From positions 5,518,001 through 5,582,000 of the forward strand of contig CM060731.1 of assembly GCA_030704615.1 (NCBI GenBank): a DNA stretch of 64,000 nucleotides, read 5' to 3'. This stretch comes from Takakia lepidozioides (Eukaryota > Plantae > Bryophyta). The notes under the pieces were generated by a model. That model saw only the letters and a program-made list of their open reading frames with translations, searched no databases and was not told the DNA's origin. The translations under genes and the position numbers were made by a program. How positions within the stretch are numbered: position 1 is the first letter of the stretch; each line of letters starts with the position of its first letter. Of this stretch, positions 8,271 through 39,795 are shown piece by piece.

Positions 8271-8297
8271 CACCTACTTCTAAAAAATGGTCTCTAT

Positions 8298-13590: not shown

Positions 13591-14611
13591 CGCCGGGGGT
13601 AAGACCAGCTGAGGTGTTCAGGCAGGCAGCTACACTCTGTGAAAGTGGGGAGGTTACTTCATCTTCTACGGAGATAGTGGGAGGTGTAGTGCCGGAGGGA
13701 TCCTCGGATTTGAGGGTCAAGACTGCCACGGCGGCGCCATGGCAAGCTGCAGCTGTCAGGTTGATGGAGCTGCCAGCTAGGCCAGCCATTGAGCGCGCCA
13801 TGGTGACACCTGGAGTTGTCATGTTAGACAACCAGGATGACATTTTCTGTTTGAGTGGACCGGCAGGCAAGAGGTACCGGCCACTGCGGGTCTTGTTGGA
13901 CTCGGGAGCTCAGCCATTGATGCTGGGCAGAGCTGCTATTGCAGGCTTGGGCCTCACGGAGGCGGATATGGAGCCTTGTCCTTTCCAGATACAGACATCT
14001 CTGGGAGGATCGGAGCAGGCTCGGGGCATGACACGGCGTGAGTTGGCTATCAGACTACGGCCGGATCACCCTACAGATGGCTCAGTGATGCGAGCCAAGG
14101 CCATTGTGACAGACGCGGTCTCATACGATGTCCTGGTTGGTGGGGCAGTGTTGTACCCCATGGGCTTCACCCTGGATTTTTGGGAGGAGTCAGCTTCCTA
14201 TAGGCCTGCATGGCAGTCAGGGGAGGGCCGGCGTGTGCAGCTCCCTGTGACGTTCATAGGAGGAGTTGCGGTTGCCCACGAGGCAAGATGCCGACACTAG
14301 CAGCATTCACAGCGGCAGTGAGTTGGCCTAGAGAGTTGCTTGAGGGCAACGCTCATTCAGAGGATGTGCCACCTCCAGGAGAGCAGGATGACATGTATGG
14401 TATGGCGGAGTTGCCTACCATGGTTGTTCAGACTCCATTGTGGGGCACGAGCAAAGGATTTGCAGCAGGATGCTGATCGACGGGTGCAACAAGCCTGGGT
14501 GGAGGCTTTTGTACCGTCAGGAGAGGAGGAGAGTGCGGGATTGCACCAGGACCACCTCAGTTGTCTCTATTGGACACCACACCTATTGTGTGGCAGTATC
14601 CGGATGAAGGC

Positions 14612-15555
14612 ATTTGTCTTCTGGACTTGTTTGGCGGGATCAGCACCGGATTGGCTGCCGTGCTACAGGCAGGTGTACGAGTTCGGCGTTACCTGTATGT
14701 GGAGAGGGATGAGACTGCACGACGCGTCTCACTGCGCCATGTTGCTCAGTTGGTACAGCAGTACCCTGCTTTGTTGCCAGTGTCTGCAGTTTGTGGATAC
14801 CAGCAAGCCTTGCCAGCAGACATTTCGTTACTGGGGGCGCCGGATTTGGAGCAGGTTGGCTCCATTGATCTGGTAGTGGCAGGTTGGCCCTGCCAAGGGC
14901 ATTCATCAGCCGGGCATGGCAATGGATTGCGAGACTCGAGGACGGGTCTGTTTTGGGAGATGGTGCGGATTTTGCGCCACTTGCAACTTCATCAAGCTGT
15001 ATCGCCAGCATACATCTTGGAGAATGTGCCACTGATGGGCGATTCTCGGGCCAGGGTGATGGCCAGTGTGCATCAAGTCTGGTCGTGGCTTGGGTCAGCA
15101 GTGCTGCTGGATGCAGCTGCAGTGGGATCACGGGCTCATCGTCCACGGCTATGGTGGACTAACTTGATGCCACCGCACTGCTCAAGCGTGCATTTGATGG
15201 GGTGCAGCGGCCAACACACCTCATAGTGGACAACATTTTGGACACAGGGAGGCAGTCTCAACGTGTGAGACACGATGACCGTTTGCCTTTGGCAGCGGTC
15301 AATAGGGTGGGTCAACCACGAGCAGCATTACCAACACTGCTCAACTTCCCAGGATCCCATGCTTTTTGGGATGGTGGACCTGGCTTCCTATGGGATGCTC
15401 AGTTGCAGCAGTTAGTGGAGCCTATTGCTGACGAGCGTGAGCGGGCAATGGGTTTTACCACTGGTACCACGGCGGTGTCGTCTCTTTCTGAGGCATCACG
15501 TCGTCAAGTGTTGGGGCAAGCAATGGATCTCAATTGCTTGACCTGGATTATCAAC
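14612..15555 (+). pseudogene. DNMT3-like C5 cytosine methyltransferase domain, copy B (one frameshift near 15175)
   Basis: ICLLDLFGGISTGL, YLYVE, DLVVAGWPCQG, GLFWEMVRIL, YILENV, DAAAVGSRAHRPRLWWTNL, ERERAMGF, RRQVLGQAM. Confidence 0.92.
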
Positions 15556-18500
15556 TTGGCTCTGGCTGAGCAACGCAGAGTGCGGAGTACACTTCCCTCG
15601 ATGGTCTCTTTGCCTACCGAGACGGTACAGGCAGTGAGTGGGGGCGAGCATGTAAGGACCACGGGGTGCATGCATCCATGGCACACGTGGGAGGTGCTCG
15701 AGGTTAGATGGAGTTGGCAGCCAAGGCGGCTGTGATGGATGAGGTTGGGGATTCTTCCCGGGTTGAGGAGGTCCTCAAGGATGAGATGCTGGGGCAGGAT
15801 GAGGCCTTGTCATTGACTGAGCAAGCAGGGAGTACTGCTCAAGAGGTTGCAACATAGCAACCACTGGACGCGTCCTCCACCTCTAAGCCCACTGGACTTA
15901 AGGTTGCAATTACGGAGGACAATTAGGAGCCTGACATTGGACCCATTGTCACCGGAGGAGAGAGACGACATATACGGCGGTTCCTGAGGGCTTACAGGAA
16001 TTGCTTTGTCTTCAGTTTGAAGGACTTGGGAGCACTGAAGGGTCAAGAGATCCGTATTGAGTTGGCCACTGACACGCCAATCTTTTGGAGACCCTATAGA
16101 TACAGTGACATGAAGAGGTCTTTGATTCAGATGAGGACTCAAGATCTCTGGGAGGCAGGTTTGGTGGAGCTCTCTGGTGGAGAGTATGCTTCAGCCACAG
16201 TGATGTCAGCCAAGAAGGATGTCTATGGCAATTGGACGGAGAGACGTATGTGCGGTGATTACCGGCCTGTAAATCGTCAGACCAAGTCCGATAGGTATGC
16301 CATGCCGACACCAGAGGAGATCTTTGATGCCATCGGGCATGCTAAGGCCTTTAGCACTTTGGATTTATGATCCGGATATCACCAGTTGCCAATCAAGGAG
16401 GCGGACAAGCAGAAGACGGTATTCTGGGGGATCAATGTGCACGGCAAGGATGGCCTATATCAGTGGCGGTTCTTATCATTTGGGCTTAAGAATGCTCCTG
16501 CAGAGTTTCAGAGAGTCATGGATAGGATTCTAGCAGGGGTGGACTTTGCTCGGTGCTACATAGATAACATCATCATCTTTAGTGTTACGATGGAAGAGCA
16601 TGAGAGACACCTTCAGGTGGTATTGGAGCGCTTGAGAGCGCACGGATTGAAGTTGCATCCGGGGAAGTGCAAGTTTTTCCACAACCAGATTGAGTATCTG
16701 GATCACATGATATATCCTGGAGGATTGGGGGTACAGCAGACTAAGGTAGAGGCCATTGCACAAATTCCACGCCCCACGGATGTGAGCCGAGTTCGAGCTT
16801 TCATGGGGTTGGCAAACTATTATAGACGGTTTGTCAAGGGATTTAGTACCATTGCAAAGGCTCTAACCAAGCTGACCAAGGTGGACCATGAGTGGCAGTG
16901 GGAAGATGAGCAGGAACGAGCTTTTCAAGAGCTCAAGGTGAGGTTGACTTCGGCGCCTATCCTGAGACGACCTATCAGGGGGCGTCCCTTTCAGCTGCAT
17001 ACGAATTGGAGCATGCTGGGGCTTGGAGCGGTGCTCACACAGGTGGATGATTAGGGAAGAGAGTTCATAGTGGCTTATCCTAGCTGCTCGAACAACGTTG
17101 CAGAGGCTAAGTACAGCTCATATGAGGGAGAGTGCTTAGCTGCAGTGTGGGCCGTGGCACACTTCAGGTGTTATCTATACGGTAATCTTTTCACCCTTGT
17201 CACGGATCACCAACCACTCAAGTGGTTGATGGAGTCAGACAAGCTTACGGGGAAGCTTGCACGGTGGGCACTCATACTCCAGGAGTATGACTTTCAGGTT
17301 GTGCATCGACCGGGTTTGGTCAATCGGGATGCGGATGGATTGAGTCGCAATCCATGCACGAGCCAACAGGATGACACTGGAGCTCGGTGGCATGGTGAGA
17401 CGGACGAGGAGATGGTGCCGGGATGGCACGCATCTGCATTTTTGTGTATCTTGGCATGGGGAGGTCAGGTTGGACCTACAACAGGGATGACTGTAGATGG
17501 AGTGTCTGAGGACCCTGAGGCTAGTGATGAGCCAGGTGGTGCCAGAGATATACATGAGGATTCGGCTGTGTTGGACTACCTCCGCACGGGAGACACGGCA
17601 GCCACTGTGACTGCCAGGGAGAGAGATCGGATCCTGCAACGAGCCAAGAGGTTCAAATGGGAGGGGACACACCTACTTTGAGTGTGGGAGGATGGTCAGG
17701 TGAGGATTGTGCCTCACCCCACACAGCGTGCACGGTTAGTGCGGCATGCCCATGAGGAGTCGGGGCATTTTGGAGTGCGACGCACTCACAGTTTACTGCA
17801 GGGGCAGTATTGGTGGCGTGGTATGCATACAGAGGTGCAACAGTTCGTGGCTAGGTGCATGGTGTGTGACAGGGTGCGTGCTTCATTCAACGCCCCTACA
17901 CCACAGTTGCATCATTTACCAATCATGGGATTGGGCTACAGGTGGAGTCTTGACTTCGCAGGACCGTTGCCACTTACTATGCGCCACCACAGATATGTGT
18001 TGGTGATGGTGGAGCACTTCTCCAAGTGGATTGAGTTGGTTCTATTGCCTGACAAGGCTAGTGAGGGGGCTGCGTATGCATTCTTGGATCGTGTGCTTAG
18101 CCGATTTGGTGCTCCAGCTGAGGTACTCACGGATCAAGGGAGAGAGTTCTTGGGGGAGTTTCAGGCTTTGTGTGATAAAGCCTTGATAGACCACCGCACC
18201 ACTTCTCGGGATCATCCTGAGGCCGATGGCTTGGCATAGAGAGTTGTTCAGACGGTGAAGAGGGGTTTGCGCAAGTATGGCTTGCAGAAGGGACACCTAG
18301 GAGATTGAGATCTTCAGGTTCCTTGGTTAGCCATGGGCTACAGGTTCAGCAAACAAGCATCACTTGCCTCTTTCTCACCATATTTCCTTCTCTTTGGCCG
18401 AGAGCCGGATTCGCCTGCAACCATTCGTAGGGACACTGCTCAAGTCGTTAACCTTGACGATCCGGACGTGTGGGTACGTGCATGTGATCAGCGTGCAGAG

Positions 18501-18846
18501 TTGTTCAAGAAAGTCATGCCCATGGCTTTTGAGAACCTTGCCATTGCACAACACCGTGATACGTTGAGGTATGCCACTATGTGGTGGAGGATATCGTCCT
18601 GGGGTTCGGAGGTTTAGCCCTGGTGACTATGTTTATTTGCAGCAGACTGCTCCTACGACTCTAGCTGTTACTACAGGGCGTGTTATTCTGAGGGTTCGAG
18701 AGGTGTTGCCCTCAGGGGTCCTGATCTTGGAGGGTCGGGATGGCATGACTTGGAAGGACCATGTGCGTAATTGTGCGCCATGTCACATTCCCAATGTCGA
18801 TGGCAGAGTTGACCCAAACTTGGTAGTGGTACCTGCAGGTTTGAGG

Positions 18847-18990
18847 TGCATGCTCTGTGGGTCTGCCAAAGGGGCAGCCACTATGCTGGTGTGTGATCAA
18901 TGCTGAAGGGGTTGGCATATGGGATGCTTGACACCACCTCTTGAGAAGGTTCCTGACGGAGATTGGTTGTGTCCACACTGCTTGGGATAG
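18847..18990 (+). pseudogene. PHD finger at the integrase C-terminus, copy B (internal TGA)
   Basis: CMLC...MLVCDQC*RGWHMGCLTPPLEKVPDGDWLCPHC, a C4-H-C3 pattern. Confidence 0.9.
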
Positions 18991-19094
18991 TGGCAGTGGA
19001 CATGACTGGAGGCAGCTAACAAGACATGGGAGGCCAATCTCATAGGAGTCAATACATGAGATCCCAAGCTCAAGTTCACAGGTTTCAAGACGGC

Positions 19095-19446
19095 TGTCAA
19101 GTTAAATAAGCACAGTGTGAAACTAGCTAGAATAAAGCTAGTTATTTGTATTTAACACTTGGATTTAGGTCAAGTGTTAAATCAGGTGTCAAGTTTAGTT
19201 TGACACCTGACCCGTCTTATCTTCACGAGAGCGGCAGTCGCGCAGCTCATCTCTCTCGAGTTGAGCCTGCGCGACCGAGCTCCTGCATGCGTTTAGATCT
19301 GAGTGTACTCATGATGGGAGTGTAGGTTGTTGTGGGGTGGAGTCCCCATAGCTTGGGGTGCCCCTGGCTCGACTACTATTTCAAAGAGTGATGGTTTTGG
19401 TTTTCATGTTTTGTGTCAACAGTGTGTTCTTAGCTTTGTTCTATCA
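19095..19446 (+). repeat. LTR-like segment (3' LTR of B, possibly shared as the 5' LTR of C)
   Basis: Nearly identical to 30667-31020. Follows pol in both copies and ends CTATCA. Confidence 0.75.
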
Positions 19447-21393
19447 CTCGAGAGAGATGAGCTCTATCTAGTTTTCTAGTGCTAAGCTAGATATGATGTT
19501 TTTGTTTTTAAGCACTATTATAATGTAGCTTGGTCACGGGGAGCCTGCAGTTAGACTGGTTAGGTGTGCCGAGTGGAGCAAAACAGAAAGCTTGAGATGT
19601 TGCTACGATTTTTGTCAACCTGTGTATATATCTGAGAATGGGGATTAAGTGGCAGCAATAAAGAAAGAGGATATAATGAGGAAGCGGCCAATGGGGTGAC
19701 CACTGGAGCGGTGATTTCAGGGCAGGCTGTGGTAGCATTCTAGAGTTGTTCGATTAGTGATGCGGCTGCAACCAGCCACCCAGCAGCGACGCCGCATTGT
19801 TCTAGTCTTGGGGACGTAAAGAACAAATACTTCGTGGTGGATGCTCCGAAGGGCCATCTGGGAATTAGGGACTGCTATGCGGAGTTTGTGGACGAGAAGG
19901 GTATGTCTGTGCCTCTGAACAACGTGTACCTGCACCACTAGATCACGTACGAGTTCTCTGTACCGAGCAATGATGTAGACACCCATAAGGAGATGCTACT
20001 GAAATCTGTGGAGAAGAAGCACTCTTCGTCTCAATCCACCTTACACGCTGCCTCATTTGAAGGCTGCTGGCTCCGACCTGAAGCTCTCAGCTGGACAGAC
20101 GTTGATGCAGTACTTTGGTGTTGGTGCGGAGACCAGGCGCACCAAGTCAACTATCCCCGCGCCCTTTGCTGAAGAGACTGCAGCTCCTTCCCTGCTTGCT
20201 GAGGGCTACGAGCCGATATGGATTCTTAATGTCCACGGCCGTGACACACGGGGGGCCGTCAACAAACTAGGGTGCAGTGAGTGTCGGTTGCTTCTTTTCT
20301 ACTCTTCTCTGAAATCTTTTACACCTGTTTTGAGGAAGTTCTCTACAGGAAGACAATGTGTAAGGGCCTCGTCCCCACCAGTCACTAAATGCCTCACAAA
20401 TGGCTGCAGCCCACAAGGTTTACCTTAGCCCATAATCCCTATTGACCTGGCACAAAGCTATAGCGGACAACAATCCGTTGCAGGGAGCTGAGTGATAAAT
20501 TATGGGCTGACGTTGGCGTCATTTTAAAAGCATGAGATGGATTCCAGCACTGCTTCTCCAGCCCCTAGCTTATCATGTGCCGTGTTAACCCTTACAAAGG
20601 AGGGTAGAAAATAGAGAAGAAGCTAGGGGCCGGTGTACTGCCATAAGGTCGACAGTGCCTGAGCGATCCAGTTGTGTTTATTATTTTACCCGAATTAGAG
20701 GCTACAACAATTTGCAGTCAGCTACTGGATTTGGCGTGTGATCTTCACAATGTGACTGTGGACCGCAAAGGAGATCCTTTAGCAGAAAGTTACCTGGGAG
20801 GCCTTTAGTGCTGCACAGATGGGAAGCGCTGTGTTGTGAAGGAGGGCTTTGAAGGCGATGAGCTTGAGATGACCATCTACCTACAGTACACATGGGAATA
20901 TATTACCTGGGATGAGTGCGTTGAGCCCTGTCAAAGGTGGTCATCGGGTTCACCAAATATATCGAGTATATTGTCGAGGGATGTGGCAACACTGATCCCG
21001 CTTCTCCGGAATGTGTAGATACACGGGAGAGGATAATAGGTGCCCCTGTTTGAAGAGATTGGTGATTTAACCGAGGCAAATGGGAAGAAGGGAGCGGGCC
21101 TTCGGTTATGGCTGCCACCAGGAACTCCTGTTTGCAGGCATCTCTTTCACAAGCTAGTTGCCCCTTTTGAGATGATGTGATCTGCGCAGTGTTGCACTTG
21201 CATCCTTCAGCCCTGGATTGTACTATGTTTGGGGAAGATGGGCGTGTGATTTGCTACTCTCCTCCCATCTGTGGTACTGGACAGGCGGCTGACATCAGAT
21301 GTATCGCATCAGCGTACACCATTGCGTTGGTGAATCCAATTTGGTTGGTGCATTAATCGATGGGCACCTGGGAACGGTGACTATACTGTAGTG

Positions 21394-21412
21394 AAAAAAA
21401 AAAAAAAAAAAA
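21394..21412 (+). other. Poly(A) tract ending a degenerate coding-like region (~19650-21390)
   Basis: A19 run. The upstream sequence has broken, protein-like frames. Confidence 0.5.
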
Positions 21413-21639
21413 TGGGAACAGGGAACCAAAGGGAACCAATTGAAAATAGTTTTTCTTTGTATTTGTTTCTATTTAAGGTCATTTATTATAGTTACAGAGC
21501 CGCTTTGGCCATATCTTTGTCATATGAGCTCCGTTTGACACAGTTTTTGAGGGGATAGCTGCAGAAAGGGGAAATCTACCTATCTAAACCTGGTTTCTGT
21601 TTTGGGGACTCTGCTAAAAATCTATGGAATTTTTAGAGT

Positions 21640-22476
21640 GTGAGTGTGCCACGAAAGATCCACAATCCTGTTTCTAGAACTTGTGTTTGTCTATATGAGA
21701 GACAAATCTGTGGATGTACTCCTTGTATGGCTGGGGGAAATGAGGACGTAATTGAAGGGCATGTCTCTTCTCTTAGCCTGTGCGCACAAGGGGACAGGAT
21801 TTATGTTTCCCAAGGAACTCAGACTGATTTGAGTGGAGAACAGTTGGACGAGTTGATTGCATACTGGGAGTCAGGCATTAGCAGTAGACAACAGACTGCT
21901 GTAGTTGGCATTGAGGGCCTCAATATCGCCTTGGACAGTCAGAACTCTGTTGGAGCCAGCAGTTCTGCAGCTGTAGGTGAAATACCAAAGTGGGTGAAAG
22001 CTAGGCTTGGAACACAGCCAAAGACAGCCCTGGGGACCAAGGTGTTCAGCCACAAGGCCGTGGTGTACTGGAGCAGAGGAGCAGGAGCTACACAAGTTTG
22101 TGCAATCAGACATGGTTGCAGCCGGATACGCTCTGCACAGGGCAACCGCGAGCGGGGGTTCATCAGCAATGACATGTTTGTTGTGCGTGAAGGAGATGCA
22201 GTCATTCGCAATGAGGACACCCGCAACCGTCTCAAAGCTTTCGAGTTGAGAGACTATCATACCCTACCTTTGTTTTCTTTAGTATTCAGTGAGCGGGAGA
22301 TAGGGGAGTATTGCTTTGTCTCTACCTGGCAGAAAGAGGAGGAGGGTTGGTTAGAGCGAGCTACTGTAGCTTGGGACAAGGTTAGTGGCAGGTTTTTGGA
22401 CATAGATATACCTCCTACACCTTACCATCATGCAGAGCGAGGCACTTTGAGAGAAGTCTGGCAGTTGATAGCATAG
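21640..22476 (+). CDS. Unknown 278-aa ORF upstream of gag in copy C
   Basis: Uninterrupted, protein-like composition, same strand as gag. No family recognised. Confidence 0.4.
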   Translation: MSVPRKIHNPVSRTCVCLYERQICGCTPCMAGGNEDVIEGHVSSLSLCAQGDRIYVSQGTQTDLSGEQLDELIAYWESGISSRQQTAVVGIEGLNIALDSQNSVGASSSAAVGEIPKWVKARLGTQPKTALGTKVFSHKAVVYWSRGAGATQVCAIRHGCSRIRSAQGNRERGFISNDMFVVREGDAVIRNEDTRNRLKAFELRDYHTLPLFSLVFSEREIGEYCFVSTWQKEEEGWLERATVAWDKVSGRFLDIDIPPTPYHHAERGTLREVWQLIA

Positions 22477-23176
22477 ATCAGGATTAGATCTTGCTTGGTC
22501 GGGCTTCTATTCTTCCCCTCCATCTCTGTACTATTTTCATTACCTTGTACTTGTAGTTGCCAAAGCCTCTCTTGGTGGAGGCCAGTCAGTCCGGGGTTTT
22601 GGGCTGGGCTATTCTGCAGGATCAGCATTGCAGCTGGATTTTGGTGTGGGGGTGTTGATGTTTTGTTTCTTGTGTTTGGATCCCCCCCAACACCTGCATG
22701 CTTGACTGTGCGCCATGTTGGTTTTGTGTGGGCGCTTGCTTTCATAGGGATTAGGCCGGATTTGATCACCGGTCAATCCTAGAGTATGCTGTCGGTGGTG
22801 AGGCTGGAGTGATGACCAGCAAGACCACCAGTGTTTCTTCTATGGTGAGGCTGGGTTGATGACCAGCCAACCATAGGAGTTCTTGCGGTGGATGCAGGTG
22901 CAGGTGCCCTGAGCCATTGGGATATGACCCTTAAACTGCAACAGGTGCCCACCCGTGTCACTATTAGATTAGTACTAGAGCCTTATAGTGTCACGTGGAG
23001 GAGGTGCACATTGTGGGTGTCATTACGGAGTTACCCAAGGGTTTTGAGGGGAGTACGGCTACAGGCAGTAACAGTGAGAGTGGGTTCACAAGACGAGGTA
23101 TTCGGTTCAGACCACCTTCACCGCCACCCTCAATTACTGTAGAGTCAGACACAGACTGGAGGCTTCATCAACAGGT

Positions 23177-26100
23177 GTGCACTTTCATTCGCCATTGTTG
23201 TGGGACGACATGGAGGAGATGTATGGAGCTACCAAGGGGCCTCGTAGGTACTCTGGAGCTGTGGGCACAATCGAGTTGGATGACTTTATCCAGGAGTTCG
23301 ACAGCTGGTATGATTTGCAGCAGATGCGCAATCCACAGCTATTCACCCCATTCATGGCGTGGAAGGGACTGTTCCAGCATTTGGAAGGCCCGCCTATGGA
23401 CGATTACCACGAGTTCAGGCGAGGACATGAAGCAGAGATTGAGGAGTGGAGGATGTATTGGTCACCTGACTACGTCTCCATTACTCGAGGCACGACGCGA
23501 CCAGTAGCTGCATCAATACCAATAGCTCCCACTGCCAGCACTAGTAGTGGAGCAAGTAGTGCTGGTACTTCTGCAGGTGGTACCAGTTCAAAAGGTGCTA
23601 CTACTCCTCCTGCCACGACTACAACACATGTGCCTAGATTCAACCCGGTGGTGGAGTTCTTCCAGGAGTTGCGGAGGAACTACCAAGGTGTACGGACAGA
23701 GAAGCTGCGAAGTTTGCAAGACTTCCAGCGCAAACCCAGTGAGAGCCTGCGAGAGGCATACACTCGTATGAGGCGCTTGATAAGTGTGACCCAAGGGGTT
23801 ACTAAAGCTCAGACAATCCAGTTTTGGTATGGAATTCTGGACAAGGAGCTCAAGAGAAGGGTGCGAGATGCAACCTTGTTACAAGCAGCCCAACCCACAT
23901 TAGCAGATGTGTTTCTGCTGGCTGAGCGGATTGAGCTCAACATGGTGGAGGAGCGAGTTGTCACCATTGGATTTGGCAAGGACATGCCTGCACAAGGCGC
24001 AGCTGCCAATCCACAGGCACAAGGTACTGCCCAGCAGCGTGGTCAGGGGGACAAGGTTTCCCAACCCAAGTTCCATGGAGCTTACAGGGGACCTCAGGTG
24101 CAGAGGCCCGTGGCGTCTTTTGCAGGCCAACAACAACCAGGGGTGATATGTTGGACATGTGGAGGACCCCATGTCAAGAGAGATTTCCCAGAGAATGGCA
24201 AAAGGCCGGCACAAGCACAGCTTGCACAGTTGCAGTGTGGGCATTGTGGCAAGTATGGGCATGGAGATGCCCAGTGTTATGACTTGCATCCTGAGTTGCG
24301 CCTAGGCCAGTTCCAAGGGAACAATGGTGGCCGGGGGCGAGGTGGACCAGCCCAGAGAGGACGAGGTGGTCGGGCACGAGGTGCAGGCCAAGAGCAAGCT
24401 CAACATGGCCAAGGGCGCGGAGGTCAGGGTGTTGATCAAGGCATGGCCAACCGGCTTCAGCAGCTAGAGCAGAGGCTCGCTGCCATGGCTATAGCTCAGG
24501 CGGTACCGGCTCCCAGGCGGGATGGTCCACCTCCTGTTCCTGAGGGAGGAGATATGGGAGGCATGGGATTCATGTGCGGAGCAGCACTACCACTAGAGCA
24601 GGTGGAGTCTGCTGCAGCCGTGACTCGAGGAGCAGCACGAGTTCCTGAGCCACGAGGTGCAGAGGTGGAGTTGGATCCACAACGTGGGGAGGCAAGCCGT
24701 CAGGCGAGGCTGCCTCAGTCATTCACCTTGGCGGAGACAGTGTTAACGCCATCCATGGCACCTAGTTCTCGCCCGACTGTTATTGAGGCGGAGGTTTCTA
24801 TGTCATTGGGGAGAGCTACACGTGCAGCACTGACACATGCTACCAAGGCTAGTGCAGCCGGTGTGTTATTGGGGGCAGCCACCTCTGTGTGTCAAGCCCC
24901 ACTGTTCTCGGCAACCATGATTGCGACGCCGGGGGTAAGACCAGCTGCAGTGTTCAGACTAGCAGCAACACTCTGTGAGAGTGGGGAGGTCACTTCATCT
25001 TCTGCGGAGTTAGTGGAAGGTGTAGTGGCAGAGGGATCCTCGGATTTGAGGGTCAAGACTGCCACGGCTGCGCCCTGGCAAGCTGCAGCTGCCAGGTTGA
25101 CGGAGCTGCCAGCTAGGCCAGCCTTTGAGCGCGCCATGGTGACACCTGGAGTTCTCTTGTTAGACAACCAGGATGGCATTTTCTCTTTGAGTGGACCGGC
25201 AGGCAAGAAGTACCGACCACTGCGGGTCTTGTTGGACTCGGGAGCTCAGCCACTGATGTTGGGCAGAGCTGCTATTGCAGGTTTGGGCCTCATGGAGGCG
25301 GATATGGAGCCTTGTCCTTTCCAGATACAGACATCTCTGGGAGGATCAGAGCAGGCTCGGGGCATGACACGGCATCAGTTGGCCATTAGACTGCAGCCGG
25401 ATCATCCTATTGATGGCTCAGTGAATGCGAGCCAAGGCCATTGTGACAGACGCGGTCTCTTACGATGTCCTCGTTGGTGGGGCAGTGTTATACCCCATGG
25501 GCTACATCCTGGACTTTTGGGAGGAGTCAACATTCTACAGGCCTGGATGGCAGTCAGGGGATGGTCGTCATGCACAGCTCCCTGTGACATTCATTGGGGG
25601 TATTGCGGCTGCCCAACGGGGCAAGATGCCAACACTAGCCGCCTTTACAGCTGCAGTTAGTTGGCCTGGAGAGTTGCTGGAAGGCAATGCCCATGCAGAG
25701 GATGTGCCACCTCCAGCAGAGCAGGATGACATGCATGGTATGGCGGAGTTGCCTGCCATGGTTGCTCACACTCCATTGTGGGGTACGAGCAAGGATTTGC
25801 AGCAGGTTGCTGATCGACGGGTGCAACAAGCCTGGGTAAAGGCTTTTGTACCGTCAGGAGAGGAGGAGGGTGCAGGTATTACACCAGGACCACCTTAGTT
25901 GTCACCATTGGATACCACACCTATTGTGTGGCAGTATTCGGATGAAGGCATTTGCCTTCTGCACTTGTTTGGCAGGATCAGCACCGGATTGGCTGCCGTG
26001 CTACAGGCAGGTGTGCGGGTAAGGCGTTACCTGTATGTGGAGAGGGATGAGACTACACGACACGTCTCACTGCGCCATGTTGCTCAGTTGGTACAGCAGT

Positions 26101-27195
26101 ACCCTGCTTTGTTGCCAGTGTCTGCAGTTTGTGGATACCAACAAGCCTTGCCAGCAGACATTTCGTTACTGGGGGCGCCGGATTTGGAGCAGGTTGGCTC
26201 CATTGATCTGGTAGTGGCAGGTTGGCCCTGCCAAGGGCATTCATCAGCCGGGCATGGCAATGGATTGCGAGACTCGAGGACGGGTCTGTTTTGGGAGATG
26301 GTGCGGATTTTGCGCCACTTGCAACTTCATCAAGCTGTATCGCCAGCATACATCTTGGAGAATGTGCCACTGATGGGCGATTCTCGGGCCAGGGTGATGG
26401 CTAGTGTGCATCAAGTCTGGTCGTGGCTTGGGTCAGCAGTGCTGCTGGATGCAGCTGCAGTGGGATCACGGGCTCATCGTCCACGGCTATGGTGGACTAA
26501 CTTGATGCCACCCGCACTGCTCAAGCGTGCATTTGATGGGGTGCAGCGGCCAACACACCTCATAGTGGACAACATTTTGGACACAGGGAGGCAGTCTCAA
26601 CGTGTGAGACACGATGACCGTTTGCCTTTGGCAGTGGTCAATAGGGTGGGTCAACCACGAGCAGCATTACCAACACTGCTCAGCTTCCCAGGATCCCATG
26701 CTTTTCGGGATGGTGGACCTGGCCTCTTGTGGGATGCTCAGTTGCAACAGTTAGTGGAGCCTAATGCCGACGAGCGAGAGCGGGCTATGGGTTTTCACTG
26801 GGACCACGGCGGTGCCTTCTCTTTCTGAGGCATCACGTCGTCAGGTGTTGGGGCAAGCAATGGATCTCAATTGCTTGACCTGGATTATCAGCTTGGCTAT
26901 GGCTGAGCAACGTAGAGTGCGGAGTGCACTTCCCTTGACAGTCTCTCTGCCTACCGAGACGGTACAGGCAGCGAGTGGGGGCGAGCCGGTGAGGACCACG
27001 GGGTGTAGACATCCATGGCACACGTGGGAGGTGCTCGAGGTTCAGAGGGAGTTGGCAGCTAAGGCGGCTGTGATGGATGAGGTTGGGGATTCTTCCCGGG
27101 TTGAGGAGGTCCTCAAGGATGAGATGATGGGGCAGGATGAGGCCTTGTCATTGACTGAGCAAGCAGGGAGTACTGCTCAAGAGGTTGCAGCATAG
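23177..27195 (+). pseudogene. gag: Gag-protease-DNMT polyprotein ORF of copy C (frameshifts near 25423 and 26795, stop at 25896)
   Basis: Retrotransposon Gag motif FQRKPSESLREAYTRMRRL; zinc knuckles CWTCGGPHVKRD(F/C) and CGHCGKYGHGDAQC; RGG-rich tract; LLDSGA protease; DNMT 25950-26892; ends at TAG 27193-27195. Confidence 0.9.
25950..26892 (+). pseudogene. DNMT3-like methyltransferase domain, copy C (motif I altered to LHLFGRIST)
   Basis: GWPCQG, ILENV, HRPRLWWTNL, ERAMGF and RRQVLGQAM are retained. Confidence 0.9.
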
Positions 27196-30100
27196 CAACC
27201 ACGGGACGCGTCCTCTACCTCTAAGCCCACTGGACTTAAGGTTGCAGTTACGGAGGACAATTGGGAGCCTGACATTGGACCCATTGTCACCGGAGGAGAG
27301 AGACGACGTATACGGCGGTTCCTGAGGGCTTACAGGAATTGCTTTGCCTTCAGTTTGAAGGACTTGGGAGCACTGAAGGGTCAAGAGATCCGTATTGAGT
27401 TGGCCACTGACACGCCAATCTTTCGGAGACCCTATAGATACAGTGACATGGAGAGGTCTTTGATTCAGATGAGGACTCAAGATCTCTGGGAGGCAGGTTT
27501 GGTGGAGCTCTCTGGTGGAGAGTATGCTTCAGCCACAGTGATGCCAGCCAAGAAGGATGTCTATGGCAATTGGACGGAGAGACGTATGTGCGGTGATTAC
27601 CGGCCTGTAAATCGTCAGACCAAGTCCGATAGGTATGCCATGCCGACACCAGAGGAGATCTTTGATGCCATTGGGCATTCCAAGGTCTTTAGCACGTTGG
27701 ATTTACGATCCGGATATCACCAGTTGCGATCAAGGAGGCGGATAAGCAAAAGACGGCATTCTGGGGGATCAATGAGCACGGGAAGGATTGCCTATACCAG
27801 TGGCGGTTCTTACCATTTGGGCTTAAAAACGCTCCCGCTGAGTTTCAAAGAGTCATGGACAGGATTCTAGCAGGGGTGGAGTTTGCTCGGTGCTACATAG
27901 ATGACATCATCATCTTTAGTGCTACGGTGGAGGAGCATGAGAGACACCTTCAGGGGGTATTTGAGCGCTTGAGGACGCACGGATTGAAGTTACATCCGGG
28001 CAAGTGCAAGTTTTTCCACAACCAGATTGAGTATCTGGGTCACATGATATATCCTGGAGGATTGGGGGTACAGCAGACTAAGGTAGAGTCCATTGCACAG
28101 GTTCCACGCCCCACGGATGTGAGCCGAGTTCGAGCTTTCATGGGGTTAGCAAACTATTACAGACGGTTTGTTAAGGGATTTAGTGCCATTGCAAAGGCTC
28201 TAACCAAGCTGACCAAGGTGGACCAGGAGTGGCAGTGGGAAGATGAGCAAGAACAAGCTTTTCAAGAGCTCAAGGCGAGGTTGACCTCGGCGCCCATCTT
28301 GAGACGACCTATCAGGGGGCGTCCTTTTCAGCTGCATACAGATTGGAGCATGCTGGGGCTTGGAGCGGTGCTCACACAGGTGGATGATGAGGGAAGAAGT
28401 TCGTAGTGGCTTATGCTAGCCGCTCGAACAATGCTGCAGAGTCTAAGTATAGCTCATATGAGGGAGAATGCTTAGCTGCAGTGTGGGCCGTGGCACACTT
28501 CAGGTGCTATCTATACGACAATCTCTTCACCCTTGTCACGGATCACCAACCACTCAAGTGGTTGATGGAGTCAGACAAGCTTACGGGGAAGCTTGCACGG
28601 TGGGCACTCATCCTTCAAGAGTATGACTTTCAGGTGGTGCATCGACCGGGTTTGGTCAATCGCAATGCAGATGGGTTGAGTCGCAATCCATGCACGAGCC
28701 AGCAGGATGACACTGGAGCTCGGTGGCATGGTGAGACGGACGAGGAGATGGTGCCCGGATGGCATGCATCTGCATTTCTGTGTATCTTGGCAGCGGAAGG
28801 CCAGGTTGGACCTGCAACAGGGATGACTGTAGATCAAGTGTCTGAGGACCCTGAGGCCAGCAATGAGCAAAGTGGCGCCAAAGATATACATGAGGATTCA
28901 GTTGTGTTGGACTACCTCCGCACTGGAGACACTGCAGCCACTGTGACTGCCAAGGAGAGGGATCGGATCCTACAACGAGCCAAGAGGTTCAAGTGGGAGG
29001 GGACACACCTGCTCCGAGTGTGGGAGGATGGTCGAGTGAGGATTGTGCCTCACCCAACACAGTGGGCACGGTTAGTGCGGCATGCCCACGAGGAGTTGGG
29101 GCATTTTGGGGTACGCACCCATAGCCTACTGCAGGGGCAGTATTGGTGGCGTGGTATGCACACAGAGGTGCAACAATTTGTGGCTAGGTGCATGGTGCAG
29201 GGTGCGTGCTTCATTCAACGCCCCTACTCCACAATTGCACCCTCTTCCGATCATGGGATTGGGCTACAGGTGGAGTCTTGACTTCGCAGGGCCGTTGCCA
29301 CTGACCATGCGTCACAACTAGTACGTGTTGGTGATGGTGGAGCACTTCTCCAAATGGATTGAGTTGGTTCCATTGCCTGATAAGGCTAGTGAGGGAGCTG
29401 CGTATGCATTCTTGGATTGTGTGCTTAGCCGATTCGGTGCTCCAGCTGAGGTACTCACGGACCAAGGGAGAGAGTTCTTGGGGGAGTTTCAGGCTTTGTG
29501 TGACAAGGCCTTGATAGACCACCGCACCACTTCTCGGGATCATCCTGAGGCCGATGGCTTGGCAGAGAGAGTTGTTCAGACAGTAAAGAGGGGTTTGCGC
29601 AAGTATGGCTTGCAGAAGGGACACCTAGGAGATTGGGACCTTCAGTTACCCTGGTTAGCCATGGGCTATAGGTTCAGCAATCAAACATCACTTGCCTCTT
29701 TCTCACCATACTTTCTTCTCTTTGGCCGAGAGCCGGATTTGCCTACATCCATTCGCAGAGAAGCTGCTACAGTTCTTAATCTTGACGATCCGGACGTGTG
29801 GGCACGTGCATGTGAGCAGCGTGCAGAGTTGTTCAAGAAAGTCATGCCCATGGCTTTCGAGAACCTTGTCATTGCACAACACCGTGATACGTTGAGGTAT
29901 GCTACCATACGTGGTGGGGGCTATCGTCCTGGGGTTCGGAGATTCAACCCTGGTGACTATGTCTATCTGCAGCAGACTGCTCCTACGACCCTGGATGTGA
30001 CTGCAGGACGTGTTATTTTGAGGGTTCGAGAGGTCTTGCCCTCAGGCGTCTTGGTCTTGGAAGGTCGGGATGGCATAACTTGGAAGGACATGTGCGTAAT

Positions 30101-30319
30101 TGTGCGCCATGTCACCTTCCGAATGTCGATGGCAGGATTGACCCAAACCTGGCAGTGGTATCTGCAGGTTTGAGGTGCACGTTGTGTGGGTCTGCTAAAG
30201 GGGCAGCCACCATGCTGGTGTGTGATCGATGCTCTAGAGGTTGGCATATGGGATGCTTGACTCCACCTCTTGAGATGGTTCCGGATGGGGAGTGGTTATG
30301 TCCACATTGCATTGGATAG
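27196..30319 (+). pseudogene. pol: RT-RNase H-integrase-PHD ORF of copy C (several 1-2 nt frameshifts, one stop)
   Basis: RMCGDYR, YIDDII, LHTDWS/TDHQPL/ADGLSR, HEELGH, SLDFAG/TDQG/AERVV, intact PHD 30176-30316. Confidence 0.93.
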
Positions 30320-30579
30320 TGGGAGTGGATACAACCATGGAAGGCTAACAAGAAACGCAAGGCCCAGCTACTAGGAGACCTTGAACACACGAGGTCCTGA
30401 CTCAAGTTCACAGATTGCAAGACGGCGACTAACGATGGGGCTACTCTTGTACCCGGCCTCTTGGTCTATAGAGTTTGAGTGCAATATGGACAGTGATAGA
30501 GGACTTAATACGGCTGTGGCTATTACATCTTGTAGCTATCTGGAGTTAGAGGGACCTATCCACCAGCTAGGGGGGCAAT

Positions 30580-31020
30580 TGTGGCAGACTACTTTATTGT
30601 GCATGTATGTGTGGTGTGGTTTGGACAGCGATGTAGTTGTGTAGCGATACGTATGCGCACGACGGCTGTCAAGTTAAATAAACACAGTGTGAAACTAGCT
30701 AGAATAAAGCTAGTTATTTGTATTTAACACTTGGATTTAGGTCTAGTGTTAAATCAGGTGTCAAGTTTAGTTTGACACTTGACCCGTCTTATCTTCACGA
30801 GAGCGGCAGTCGCGCAGCTCATCTCTCTCGAGTTGAGCCTGCGCGACCGAGCTCCTGCATGCGTTTAGATCTGAGTGTACTCATGATGGAAGTGTAGGTT
30901 GTTGTGGGGTGGAGTCCCCATAGCTTGGGGTGCCCCTGGCTCGACTACTATTTTCAAAGAGTGATGGTTTTGGTTTTCATGTTTTGTGTCAACAGTGTGT
31001 TCTTAGCCTTGTTCTATCCA
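30580..31020 (+). repeat. 3' LTR of copy C
   Basis: Starts TG after the purine tract and ends CTATCCA. The segment 30667-31020 matches 19095-19446. Confidence 0.7.
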
Positions 31021-31021
31021 T

Positions 31022-31465
31022 TGTGGCAGACTACTTTATTGTGCATGTATGTGTGGTGTGGTTTGGACAGCGATGTAGTTGTGTAGCAATATGTATGCGC
31101 ACGACACGGCGACTAACGATGGGGAAACTCTTGCACCCGGCCTCTTGATCTATCGAGTTTGAGTGTAGTAGGGATAGTGGTGGAGGACTTAGTGAGACTA
31201 TGGTCACTATCACATCTTGTGGCTACCTGGACTTAGAGGGACCTAAGCACCAGCTAGGGGGGCGATTGTGTGGACTAGTGACTGACATAGTGGGCAGCAT
31301 AGTGGCAGCATAGTGGCAGCCTAGTGACTGACTAGTTGTAGCCTAGTGGTTGGACTAGTGGCTGGACTAGTGGTGGACTAGTGGTATACTAGTGTGTGGT
31401 GTGCACATGTGTTGTGTGGTTTTGGACAGCGATGTAGTTGTGTAGCGATATGTATGCGCATGACA
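31022..31465 (+). repeat. Rearranged tandem duplicate of LTR start, 3' UTR and PPT, with a CTAGTG-based microsatellite-like expansion
   Basis: 31022-31106 repeats 30580-30663; 31107-31266 repeats 30423-30579; 31267-31465 is a variant LTR start. Confidence 0.75.
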
Positions 31466-33927: not shown

Positions 33928-36552
33928 TCACCCACAAGAACAGACCCCATCTTCAAAGTGGTGAAAGCGGTGGGCATCCCGTACAACTATTGCTCGCCCA
34001 ACAATTTTTGAGATGAACTTGGTGGCATTGTGGCAGTCACCACACACCCTAAGGTTTTTAATGATGCGGATAGGCGATCCAGAGGGTGTGCTGATGAGCC
34101 CAAAAGCAATGGCCAGCCTCTCACTGTGGTGGCAAAGGGAAAATTCCTTTTGTTCCTCCTCCAAGTCCTCCAATGCAAAGCGCATGTCAGGCACATACCC
34201 AGCGTCCTTCATCAGCACAGACAATCTCGTCAGCTCAGCATGGATTCCCTCAATTTGTGGATGTGACTTGTCCTCTACAACAAATGCATGCATTTGGCTG
34301 TTGACCGCAATATAGCTGCACCCTGGCTTCTTTCTGACACCTCTGTCCTCCATTAACCTTCTCACCTTGGCTTTATCATCCCACCTGCCAGCTGCAGCAT
34401 AGATGTTTGATAGTAGCACATAAGCTGCAGCATCCTGTGGGTCCCACTTGAGAACATATTTTGCAGCACGTTCTGCTACCTCCACATCTCTATGAATTCT
34501 ACAGGCACCAAGCAAAGCCCCCCACACTGCACCATGTGGTTCAATTGGCATTTTCTTGATGAAGTCCTCTGCCTCATCCAATCGCCCCGCACGACCAAGA
34601 AGGTCCACCATGCAGCCAAAATGCTCTACTGTAGGCGTGAGGCCATGATCTTGACTCATGGAATCGAAGTACTCACGTCCTTCATTCACTAGGCCTACAT
34701 GGCTGCATGCAGAGATAAGCGAAATGAAGGTGATATCATCTGGCCTCAAGCCTTCCTGATGCATTTGTCCAAATAGTTGAAGGGCCTCCCTACCACACCC
34801 ATGCTGAGAATATCCTGCTATCATTGCGTTCCATGTGACCACATCTCTTCTGGGCATTTTGTCAAACACTTCATGCGCATCCTTTAGGCTCCCGCATTTT
34901 GCATACATGTCGACAAGGCTATTCTCTAGATTGATATGTGTCCCAAATCCAATTTTAATAATGTCAGCATGAGCCTGCTTGCCCTTTTCCAGGGCTCCTA
35001 TTCTGGCACAGGCATTGAGGATGCCAATGAACGTAACTCTGTTGGGTGTCACCCTTTCCCGTTGCATTTGCTCGTAGAGCTCAAGAGCCTTTTCACCATG
35101 CTGATGCTGAGCATATCCTGCAATCATTGCATTCCATGAGACCACATCTCGTTGAGCCATTTTGTCAAACACTTGACGTGCATCTCCAATGCTTCTGCAC
35201 TTGGCATACATGTCAAGAAGGGTCGTCTCCAAATTAATAGATGATGAAATTCCAGCTTTGATGATGTCAGCGTGGACCTGATTGCCTTTCTCCAGGGATC
35301 CAAGGCTGGCACATGCATTTAAAATGCAAATGAATGTGACCTTGTCAGGGGTCACCCTTTCTCTTAGCATTTGCTCATACATTTTGAAAGCCTCCTCACC
35401 ATGCCCATTCTGAGCATATCCTGCCATTATTGCACTCCATGAGACCACATCTCGTTTAGCCATTTTGTCGAACACCTGGCGTGCATCCTTTAGGCTCCCA
35501 CATTTTGCATACATGTCAACAAGGGTATTCTCCAGTTGAATGTTCAATGGAATTCCACCTTTAATAATGTCAGCATGGACTCTCTTGCCATTGTCCAGGG
35601 CTCCTACGCTGGCACATGCATTGAGAACGCAAATGAATGTGACACGGTCAGGCGTCACCCTTTCTTGTTGCATTTTCTCATAGATTAGTAGAGCCTCTTC
35701 ACCATCTCCATGCTGAGCATATCCAGCAATTATTGCATTCCATGAGACAACATCTCGGTTAGGCATGTTGTTGAACACTTGACGTGCATTTTGAATGCTC
35801 CCACATTTGGCATACATGTCCATGAGGGTATTCTCTAAATTAATATATGGTGCAATTCCAGCTTTGATGATGTCAGCATGAACCCGCTGGCCCTTTTGCA
35901 GGTCTCCTAAACTGGCACATGCATTGAGAATGCAAATAAATGTGACCCTATCAGGCATCACCCCTTCCTTTTGCATTTGCTCATAGATTTTATGAGATTC
36001 TTCCGCATGCCCATGCTTGGCATATCCAGCCATCATCGTTGTCCATGTGAATATATCTCGCTGAGACATTTCCTCAAACACATGTTGTGCATCCACCATG
36101 CTTCCACATTTGGCATACATGTTGAGAAGGTTGTTGACTACAAAGATGGTTGGCTTGAATCCAGTTTGCAGAATGTGGGCATGAACCTGCTTTCCCTCTC
36201 CCAGGGCTTTCATGTTGATGCACCCCTGCAAGAGCCAGACATACATATCAGAGTCCGCCTGAATGCCTCCTTGGTCCAAAGAATGCAGCGCCTCCTTCAG
36301 TCTTCCCTTTTCAAAAAGTGACCTCACAGTCCCAGGAGGGCTGGACATAACTTTAATTACTTCCTCTCTTGGCCCTCGTTTCAAGTTGATTGCAATAGTA
36401 GAGGTGCTAATCCAGCGGCCAGTCTGATGTCCAACAAACGTGTGTCCCTGATGCAACCCTGCCATCCTGAATAACTCTGAATTGCAAGAGACAATTTTGG
36501 GTTCAGAACATCTCAAAAGCTTGAATATCACCTCAAAGCAAGACCTCTTCAT
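33928..36552 (-). CDS. PLS-class PPR protein with E1-E2-DYW domain (organellar C-to-U editing factor) lacking the last three residues; alternative start 36465
   Basis: Intronless 883-aa frame; five MYAKC-containing PLS units; PG box KKPGCSYI; HSERLA and CGDCH deaminase motifs; ends [11 protein letters not shown]-stop. Confidence 0.95.
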
Positions 36553-37727
36553 GATGACCAGGTTGTAGTGCAGTTGCAACTGATTTCATTTCTTCTCTTG
36601 GAGCTCCATGCAGCATATCAAACTTAGGACCATCACCAGATTGTGCCAACCTTCAGTCGTAGTGACAGGCTCTGCTTTCACACAATGCGGGTTTGATCAA
36701 CTCTCCAGCCACAGAGCCTCCTTTCTACACTTATGTTGGAAGCCCGGATATATTGAGGTCTTCTGTGAAAACCACAGATGCAGCTGAGCAGCTAAAGGTT
36801 AAACCACAGCCTCGTACACATGAGGCTACAAGCACAAAAGCGCCAAAAAAGCTGTGAATGCATTATTTGAGCATGCAATTTCAACTTGGATGCAAGTGTT
36901 GATGATCATGGTGATCCAAGATAAGGAACACTACAGTAGGATTATTGCCAAAGATCATCATTGACACTATTCTAAGCAACTAAGATCACAGTTTAATCTC
37001 CGAGAAGACACCATGCTAGATTGAGTCAGAGAAACCTGAATGTCCTTTCCATCCTCTAGACCTGAAAAATAATAGGATGTAACGCAGTCAGCCTCACCTC
37101 GAACCAATTGGACCAATGTGAAGGATTTGACAGGAATTCCTCATAAAGCCGTTCTATATTCATCGCTTGGCCTGCATGCAGGTACCTCTTGAACATAAGA
37201 TGCACCATAACCAGAGCTTTATTGAGGAAGCCTTCTGCCACATTCAAGCAGAGAAAAGATGAAGGCGAGGTAATGGTAACAGTTGGCTCAAATGGACGAG
37301 ACAAGGTCATCGACGTCTTCAAGTTTGTTGAGTCTGTCCCTTGGAAGAACAGCGGACCTGTCAAACAGCCCCGGCCTTGGACGGATGAATTCATTACAGG
37401 TAGAAGTCCTCCAGAATTCAGATCATGAGATGGCAGCCAAGATTGATAGGACATGCAGAAAATGTGGCTCGAAGTCTGCACAAATCCACGCTGAGATTGT
37501 TCAGAATCTTTACTATATATAAGGGCCACCTCGTCAGGAGAAGACTGATGTCACAACTCAGTAGGCTGCCCACCTCTGTACACTGAGCTACTCCAGCTGA
37601 GGAGAGGGCGTGATGAGAATAATTTCTCATAATTCACCGTCCTTAGCTCCCACGCAGGACGCAGATGGTCAGATCACCCTCGCTAGAGTTTTCTTCCTCC
37701 ATGTCAATCTTTGGGTGACGAAGACGC

Positions 37728-37742: not shown

Positions 37743-39795
37743 ACTGCCAGACGAATAGTCTTGTCAGCGTACGGTCGAACGCTCAAATCCACATGTGCAA
37801 ATTGTCATCAATCCAAGCATACTCGGATCAGAAACAATCTCCTGCTGAATTGGCTCACACTGACGGTTTCAAGTGCAGAGGAAGTCTTGTCAGAACTCTA
37901 GGCTCTCTTTGGGTAGGACACAGGGGCTGGAATATGTATACGGAGAGAGAGATAAGTAGAGTAAGAGTTGAACGATGGAAGTGTGTGTAGCATATCTGCG
38001 CTAATTGGGTAGCCCACGTTGTTGAGAGATGAGGTTCAAATCGAGAGCAAGTTTTGTGCGGTTTTTTACTTCAAATCGGGAGAAAGCGTTCTCAGACTTT
38101 TCGGTCCAAGTTGAGAAGCTGTTACAGACTTTTGGGCTTGATTTTGGGAACTGCCTCGTAAGATTTTTGGGTTAAAGTAGAGGGTGTGTCTCTGTGAATT
38201 TTCGTCCCTTGCAAGGACACTGGCATTGGTAAGACCACTATATTTGTAAAAGGACATTTGACCATATGACGTGAACAGGGTATAAGAGTCGGTAGGAGCT
38301 GGAGGCTATGATATGCAAGGTGCATAATCTCGCTCGTCTCATGTCACTCGTGCTACCAGTCTGCCAGTATGTAAATCGTTAAGTTTCTTTGTGCTGTTTC
38401 TTTTAAATTGGAAATCTGTTCGGATTCCTTGCATTGCCCACACTTTGTAGCTGAGCTGCACTATAGTATCCCTGGTATCTTGTATTTTTATTGCGTTGAT
38501 CCAGATTAAGACCAAGGGCAAAGGAGGATGTTATGTACTGAGGTCTTGGGACCTGGGCAAAGGCACAGAAGAAAGGATACTCAAAGTATGTAGAGAGGTG
38601 CAGGTGTTCCCAGCTGTAAGGGAGGGCACGAGACTAAGACACTTGAGAACATTTTGTAGAGCATTTTCAAGTGCCTGGACAACGACCCTTGGTACTCATC
38701 CTTTGTTTCTATTTTCCTTCCTCCCCCACCCTGGACTTCTTTCTTTCATTGACGTCACAAAATTCTTTCTTCGTTCTCTCTGTTGCTCTACTTACAGACA
38801 CATCTGCAGTAAGTGACATGTCCAAGCAATGGGCATGATGGTGTTGTGGTCCTTCTGGAGCAGTGGCACTGCAATCCAACTCGCAGTCACACTGGTGGAT
38901 TGAAAATGGCTAACAGACAAAGAAAGGAGGAAAGTTTTGTAGTCTCCAGAGAGAGAGGTTAAATTGGGCAAAACTACAGTAGCACTCCTCAATAAAATTT
39001 GGGCAGAAAATTGAATTGTGGCCATACATCATCCTCATTGAATTGCCAGCTATGGGAAACAAATGCGGCGCCTTGAGCATCCATTGATCACTTGGAAAAG
39101 ACTTTTCAATCATTACAATGGAGTAGAGTGACACTTATTGGGAAAGTACATTCACATGTCGAAACCATAATTCATGGAAGAAATATGGCTTGAAGTTATT
39201 TGCAAACTAGTTAAAGGTCTTACTTTTAATGTTGTACTTGCATGCAGTCAAAGCATTAAGAATAGAATGCGTTTGGCAAGAGTTCATTTCAGATCAGTGG
39301 TGGGCCAACAGTTTTAACCAGGTATAACTATCCTAAATGCTGCTATTTCGTAAATTGAATCATGATTTCAGTTGGGTAGATGTACTGGTGAAACTGGTTG
39401 TTCAATGTTGTGTGCCCGGTGTTTTGGAAGACACTTGGTAGGCTTTGGTGTCGTAACCTGGTCTGTCTGTGATGATCATTGTAGTAGAGTTCCTTGAATG
39501 GCTACGTTTGTTGTGTTCTCACAGAAGGAGACAAAATTCCCAAGCTTCAAACATAAGCGTATGAAAAAGGCATGGCAGTCAAATCCACTTTTGGTGAAGT
39601 CAGAGGTGCCCTCTATGACACAAGGTCGAGCACAATATGGCGATGATCAGATCTGGACGTGCAGCACGGACATCCAGGCAAAGAATCCAATCCACAGGTA
39701 TTGTGTTGTGGATAATGATTCAAAATTTAAATTGCTAAAGTCTTCAAAGTAGATGGCTGCAGATTCTTTTGCGACTCAGTGGAAAGTCCGTCCCC

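Follow-up and report, generated by a model that had tools for sequence, protein, structure and literature searches.

Bryophyte Gypsy retrotransposons with a DNMT3-like methyltransferase ahead of a conserved, probably leaky stop codon and with permuted terminal repeats

A 64,000-nucleotide stretch of the Takakia lepidozioides genome (assembly GCA_030704615.1, contig CM060731.1, positions 5,518,001 to 5,582,000 of the forward strand), referred to here as the window and numbered from its first letter, holds four copies of one Ty3/Gypsy retrotransposon, two on the plus strand (A and B) and two on the minus strand (C and D). Between its protease and reverse transcriptase (RT), the element carries a domain that by motifs, profile and fold is a DNMT3-like cytosine methyltransferase (MTase), for which enzyme function is predicted. 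From its sequence, we consider it fairly probable that the first open reading frame (ORF1) encodes Gag, protease and MTase up to a leaky stop codon, and that the MTase would be packaged at the level of Gag and likely methylate the element's own cDNA. Capture of an MTase is already known from algae; the additions made here are the range in bryophytes, the readthrough layout and the resolved structure of the element ends.

The copies, and the coding parts of copy A, are located as follows:

19095..31106, plus strand: copy A, arranged as repeat A1, leader, coding region, polypurine tract (PPT), B1, A2 and B2; starts with TGTC, ends with GACA and has CGGC on both sides
13591..19094, plus strand: copy B from protease to PHD finger; 5' part missing in an N gap; hosts the nested copy A
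31111..31464, plus strand: remainder of copy B, with 3' untranslated region (UTR), PPT and a single B repeat with the GACA end
8447..13090, minus strand: copy C; 3'-truncated within the PHD finger, 5' part missing in an N gap
54410..61937, minus strand: copy D; duplicate of C where both are present, without terminal repeats
23210..24300, plus strand: Gag, which opens ORF1 and carries zinc knuckles; its alignment with the Marchantia protein P0122 begins at residue 1 of the latter (PF03732 E 0.007, under the cut-off)
25139..25600, plus strand: aspartic protease with DSG at about 25236 and a break in the frame at about 25422 (PF13650 E 0.012, under the cut-off)
25950..26880, plus strand: DNMT3-like C5 methyltransferase of copy A; motif I degenerate, frame break near 26795
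26229-26231, 26358-26366 and 26848-26862, plus strand: its catalytic Cys, ENV and motif X
27193..27201, plus strand: in-frame TAG followed by CAA CCA, a UAG-CAR-YYA motif at the end of ORF1
27196..30319, plus strand: ORF2 with RT, RNase H, integrase (zinc finger and core) and a C-terminal PHD finger, found with Pfam; several frame breaks

The element reaches from 19095 to 31106, further than the span 23177..30319 assigned to it in the first-pass annotation, whose description of the copies as decayed is borne out: none of the four in the window is whole, and copy A has frame breaks near 25422, 26795, 27726 and 28397 as well as in the integrase. Copy B is 92.5% identical to copy A, which lies inserted in its 3' UTR; without the insertion, the site corresponds to sequence near 30420 in the 3' UTR of copy A itself. 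Because C and D sit in a near-exact 13-kb duplicate (1-13090 and 45966-59051, with 0 mismatches and 12 gap columns), three of the four copies are independent. Each half of this duplicate adjoins an N gap, and an assembly duplication is probable.

All four copies match PF00145 above cut-off, with E-values of 1.9e-13 (25899-26825) and 1.1e-13 (14477-15223) on the plus strand and of 3e-12 (copy C, 11856-12890) and 3.4e-12 (copy D, 57736-58851) on the minus strand. This agrees with the first-pass annotation, which had recognized a C5-MTase domain between the DSG protease and RT in four copies, with the GWPC catalytic cysteine kept and ENV present in unpermuted order; both motifs are found in all four. 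The further motifs that it had given for every copy hold in part. Motif I reads DLFGGIST in B, C and D but LHLFGRIST in A, and motif VIII, given as HRPRLWW, reads HRPQLWW in C and D. As for motifs IX and X, 28 residues are missing ahead of the former in C and D, B has a break following motif VIII, and in A and C motif X is off the frame of the domain core.

The affinity to DNMT3 rather than to plant DRM, also proposed earlier, is upheld, DNMT3A being the best solved match by both profile and fold. When a profile built from 23 relatives was compared with the PDB, it matched 53 sequences, and the top 29 were DNMT3A/B/C (E 3e-21 to 2e-16), with DRM (1e-8), HhaI and bacterial enzymes ranking after them. 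All matches listed by Foldseek for a predicted model of the first 300 residues (mean predicted local distance difference test score 66) were DNMT3 entries, at about 20-26% identity. The domain shares its fold and unpermuted motif order with host DNMT3 (animal DNMT3A/B and moss DNMT3), yet it differs in being without PWWP, ADD and introns and in this low identity; DRM, by contrast, is permuted and scores far lower. The ESM Atlas gave generic PF00145 clusters, one of them streptophyte, and added no information, and just six weak, partial MTase matches (34-39%) were found in IMG/VR, which were not used.

Two domain orders occur among the relatives, protease-MTase-RT and RNase H-MTase-integrase, and their MTases form separate clades. 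In 54 aligned proteins of the first order, which is one clade in the RT tree (0.98), the catalytic cysteine is kept in 52 (GWPC in 41, GWEC in 9), ENV in 50, ERAMGF in 38 and the AHRxR of motif VIII in at least 44; in both orders, conservation extends to the cysteine, ENV and the arginines of motif VIII. Motif X reads GQAM, not GRSW. Between diverged relatives, dN/dS of the MTase is not near 1, at 0.12 (L049/L050; L numbers denote loci), 0.14 (L050/L054) and 0.16 (L002/L009), which indicates purifying selection; the protease gave 0.16, 0.18 and 0.41, and for L050/L054 the values are 0.06 in RT and 0.02 in the integrase. Among 73 elements, 16 of the 18 RT splits with support of at least 0.95 recur in the MTase tree, and the domain has therefore long travelled with the element. 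The separate MTase clade of the second order implies that the domain either moved once or was captured twice. This order, as RT-RNase H-MTase-integrase-PHD, is complete in 49 proteins (P0167-P0199, P0220 and others), often with GWEC and EPFGG; P0220 is from Scenedesmus.

The MTase had been taken for a part of a continuous Pol in frame with RT; instead, the conserved stop at 27193-27195 intervenes and the domain belongs to ORF1. TAG CAA CCA stands at the equivalent position in all four window copies, and no substitution at a depth of at least 1% is listed for 27193-27201 in 564 and 583 contigs from two host runs of one sample. Related loci number 80 in all, and 57 of them span MTase to RT. The MTase and RT frames are in phase in 42 of these 57, and a single stop separates them in 27. 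At the homologous site, TAG or TAA followed by CARY is found in 53 of 54 distinct loci, as against 12 of 759 premature stops inside domains, and the full UAG-CAR-YYA is present in all four window copies and in five of the 54. L002, L049, L050 and L054 have the same full motif as the window; L050 has the undamaged layout of 1369 amino acids, TAG CAG TTA and then 1047 amino acids in one frame. Marchantia gene models stop 75-77 amino acids past motif X, and relatives of the protease-MTase-RT order that are without the stop (P0161, P0192, P0214) branch deeper. SIRE1 reportedly has a stop of this kind before env. UAG-CAR-YYA is the type I readthrough motif of tobamoviruses and works with UAA too, according to the accessible text of PMC3542737; the signal of the window element is identical and splits Gag-protease-MTase from RT-integrase. 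Judged by this motif, the stop is very probably read through at a low rate. A leaky stop placed after the MTase would put the MTase at the level of Gag, with RT and integrase well below it.

That Pol is instead made without readthrough, from spliced RNA or by reinitiation, we regard as very unlikely. A moss-like family with CAA-CCC after the stop has an in-frame ATG 6 nt past it, permitting reinitiation, and some Marchantia models fuse MTase to RT (P0127, P0129, P0132). The ATG is absent there, however, in the window and in L002, L049, L050 and L054, and the first methionine of the window lies ~85 residues on, inside RT; the shared phase of the two frames also speaks for readthrough. In the fused Marchantia models, 75, 1 and 36 residues are left at the join, lengths that one would expect if the introns were guessed.

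The remaining coding parts follow the Ty3/Gypsy order of Gag, protease, RT, RNase H and integrase. ORF2 is one open frame of 1047 amino acids in L050 and L054, and the L050 protease matches PF13650 at E 2e-4. No match to a tyrosine recombinase, as in DIRS/Ngaro elements, was found, an rve integrase being present instead. The PHD finger best matches those of CHD4, PHF12, ATXR5, KDM5B and BHC80. Fingers of these types are readers of unmodified H3 tails, and the domain may steer integration.

The ends of copy A are built from two repeats, A and B:

19091..19094, plus strand: left target-site duplication CGGC, inside the copy B 3' UTR
19095..19446, plus strand: repeat A1 (TGTC...ATCA), 98% identical to A2; 5' end of copy A
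19244..19261, plus strand: A1 stretch complementary to the primer site (18-nt perfect complement); predicted transcript 5' end, serving as self-primer
19447..19463, plus strand: primer-binding site of the self-priming type, directly 3' of A1
30569..30579, plus strand: PPT and two nucleotides (AT) before B1
30580..30666, plus strand: repeat B1, together with the 2-nt spacer at the B|A junction
30667..31019, plus strand: repeat A2
31020..31106, plus strand: AT and repeat B2 (TGTGG...GACA), 3' end of copy A
31107..31110, plus strand: right target-site duplication CGGC

The A1...B1-A2-B2 layout recurs in L057, L067 and L075, and the 3' B-A-B also in L012 and L074. Exact 4-bp target duplications flank the window element and six of seven scorable loci, the seventh agreeing at three of four positions (L009 and L036, which both end at contig ends, are excluded from this count). 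The TGTC...GACA termini, of the TG...CA form, and the target-site duplication are those of Ty3/Gypsy elements. The layout is not that of standard twin long terminal repeats (LTRs): primer site and PPT bound B+A, but inserted copies begin at A and finish at B. Since the PPT precedes B1 and the primer site follows A1, reverse transcription should yield an LTR of B+A. That the 3' repeats comprise an ordinary LTR and a separate stray fragment was considered and dropped after analysis of the A/B repeat layout, the primer site and the PPT. The window primer site matches at 14 of 14 positions, against a control maximum of 11. In L057 the self-complementary primer site spans 17 nt and is unlike the 18 nt of the window in sequence, so that primer site and partner change together between the two families.

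The B|A junction reads GACG-GC-TGTC in the window and GACA-GC-TGTC in L009, L012, L054 and L057, and the two middle bases of this palindrome are absent after insertion. The A2|B2 joint runs from the end of A through two bases, GT or AT like those that follow the PPT, to the start of B, and therefore matches end-to-end joining of linear cDNA. This structure suggests integration from a circular intermediate that would be cut inside the LTR at the palindrome GACA-NN-TGTC; circles are used in a similar manner by IS3 and IS30. The insertion site of copy A (GACGGC) resembles the element's own B|A junction. Scorable 3' ends of distinct insertions (L012-L080) are B-A-B in 5 of 17 and a single B in 12, with L025 being B-only. 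Copies with a single B still have their target duplications and would be compatible with one-LTR circles, with double cutting or with recombination between B1 and B2.

The closest known system is KnitGypsy-Dnmt3 of Klebsormidium nitens, which the accessible text of de Mendoza et al. 2018 (PMC5890265) describes as having a Dnmt3 domain in Pol and DIRS-like repeats and as an acquisition of the K. nitens lineage. By that account it shares with our element the Gypsy domain set, a Dnmt3-like domain that is unpermuted and evolves under purifying selection (Ka/Ks < 0.2 in that study) and A...B-A-B repeats as in DIRS/Ngaro (their Figure 4 legend). It differs in that its DNMT is in one ORF with RT and RNase H, which the conserved stop splits here, and in that our host is a land plant; the PHD finger, self-priming, 4-bp duplications and internal palindrome go unmentioned in the text accessible to us. 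Klebsormidium is not among the named relatives of our element, and the likeness drawn here is one of domain set and repeat layout. SymbioDIRS-Dnmt3 and SymbioLINE-Dnmt of Symbiodinium are likewise retroelements with a C5 MTase, of Dnmt3 type in the DIRS form, which methylates CG de novo in yeast (PMC5890265); unlike our element, with its DDE integrase and target duplications, they have tyrosine-recombinase or LINE backbones. Tf1/Sushi and the plant Tcn1 share the Gypsy order and a self-priming primer site (Neumann et al. 2019, PMC6317226), but the accessible text gives them ordinary twin LTRs and names chromodomains and aRH as extra domains; ‘methyltransferase’ and ‘PHD’ have no occurrence in its main text as available. 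The REXdb finder needs two full LTRs, and the family has therefore likely been missed.

We propose that the RNA would be translated mostly into Gag-protease-MTase and, by rare readthrough, into RT-RNase H-integrase-PHD. Self-primed reverse transcription would then give a linear cDNA bounded by B+A LTRs, whose ends would be joined, and the integrase would cut the internal palindrome to leave permuted repeats. Inside the particle, the protease would free the MTase, which would methylate the cDNA de novo, probably at CG, and the new copy would arrive marked like host repeat DNA; this release and this methylation are the two least supported steps. The whole, an old, unclassified bryophyte Gypsy lineage with a capsid-level MTase made by readthrough, a cDNA circle, DDE integration at the LTR palindrome and self-methylation before insertion, is offered as a tentative scheme.

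A number of observations weigh against the reading of a packaged, self-methylating enzyme made ahead of a leaky stop. At the stop, 46 of the 54 loci have CAA-CCC, not the full CARYYA (C at +6), 18 have TAA, and the moss-like ATG offers another start; the 80 loci are for the most part closely related and come from a single moss-like host, leaving independent contrasts in ~4 lineages. As to the enzyme, the structure model is weak past residue 210 and is without motif X, and dN/dS is 0.5-0.64 among close, decayed copies. The MTase and RT trees are of element domains only. The element is not more depleted in CpG (observed/expected 0.50-0.55) than its surroundings (0.32-0.55); an excess of CG and CHG over CHH changes between copies, seen in two comparisons out of three, is explained by host methylation. 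KnitGypsy-Dnmt3 gave no methylation in yeast, a result its authors call inconclusive (PMC5890265); speaking for an active enzyme, cloned SymbioDIRS-Dnmt3 domains methylated CG there (PMC5890265). At the ends, the primer site exceeds all controls in just 10 of 19, and mirror-image A-B-A...B copies, predicted by a plain two-LTR-circle model, are found at none of 20 distinct 5' ends.

Two other roles for the domain come into question. We think it quite unlikely that it is a nucleic-acid-binding or structural part of the particle, or an RNA methylase, and brings about no DNA methylation: the yeast result for KnitGypsy-Dnmt3, an abundance at the level of Gag and the GQAM of motif X would fit this, but the cysteine, ENV and motif VIII arginines are kept in both domain orders and dN/dS is as low as given above. 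An enzyme whose main substrate is chromosomal DNA, be it integrated copies, target sites or host genes, which would reach the nucleus free owing to expression at the level of Gag, with the PHD-integrase steering to chromatin with unmodified H3K4, is unlikely. Its position in ORF1 implies a large excess of MTase over RT and integrase, the best matches of the PHD finger fit such targeting, and the family is high-copy, with about 31,000-32,000 contigs per host run on one 3-kb stretch. Yet the ORF1 MTase is without a fused nuclear-targeting or chromatin-reading module, the K. nitens methylome is ordinary by the accessible text of PMC5890265, and CpG content gives no signal in either direction.

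The host is a land plant. Copies A and B lie on a gap-free contig (13591-43590) together with two host genes of land-plant type:

33928..36585, minus strand: PPR-E-E+-DYW gene, found with Pfam
39739..42114, plus strand: PPR-E-E+-DYW gene, with all named best matches in land plants

Their best identities are about 52-61%, to Diphasiastrum, Ginkgo, Cryptomeria and mosses. The contamination check raised by the first-pass annotation, whether the contig is contiguous with these genes, accordingly came out in favour of a land-plant origin. That the element is an algal contaminant, or a chance fusion confined to a single decayed lineage, is extremely improbable: the assembly is imperfect, with two N gaps and the 13-kb near-exact duplicate, but besides this contiguity there are relatives at 65-74% identity on chromosome-scale liverwort and moss assemblies. 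Those named are from Marchantia polymorpha, M. paleacea, Calypogeia fissa, Riccia sorocarpa and Sphagnum species; more distant ones are from Closterium, Chromochloris and Scenedesmus, and a wide search gave 202 cluster representatives at E <=1e-30. The Marchantia Gag-protease-MTase genes encode 1278-1281 amino acids, with all motifs kept in three of four checked. Full-length models of this kind, P0516 and P0517, are on the Marchantia V sex chromosome (Mp_Vg00370, Mp_Vg00540). Given the wide range in bryophytes and the repeat layout shared with KnitGypsy-Dnmt3, old inheritance in the green lineage is likelier than new capture. In mainly non-subscription literature, we found no description of such an element in land plants, of the stop or of the Marchantia gene ids, and the accessible text of PMC10952607 and PMC8616336 likewise describes no land-plant case; PMC12344493, in its accessible part, speaks of them in ‘streptophytes’, a term that may cover land plants.

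Land plants silence retrotransposons by cytosine methylation, and an element with its own selected MTase bears on how elements cope with this. The hosts of such enzymes known since 2018 are poor genetic models, and Marchantia is a good one: its unbroken ORF1 copies, annotated as hypothetical genes, make self-methylation and circle integration testable. The readthrough layout, if true, would give a high enzyme dose per particle, and the permuted repeats suggest a route unusual for integrase elements and may explain misses by LTR finders. Gag-protease-MTase genes also inflate DNMT counts in bryophyte annotations.

Other features of the window are the following. The two PPR-DYW genes are 78% alike and divergently oriented, and a further PPR fragment lies in 32700-33500. 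The copy A leader is long and holds foreign sequence:

19464..23209, plus strand: leader, with a SURNod19 host-gene fragment at 20003-20428 (PF07712 E 3.4e-21) and a poly(A) run at about 21393-21412

With the poly(A) following ~1 kb on, the SURNod19 fragment is possibly a captured processed transcript. Beside the truncated ends of C and D, diverged repeats at 7351-8247 and 62269-62656, with ~535-bp spacing and a ~93-bp tandem unit, are probably other mobile elements.

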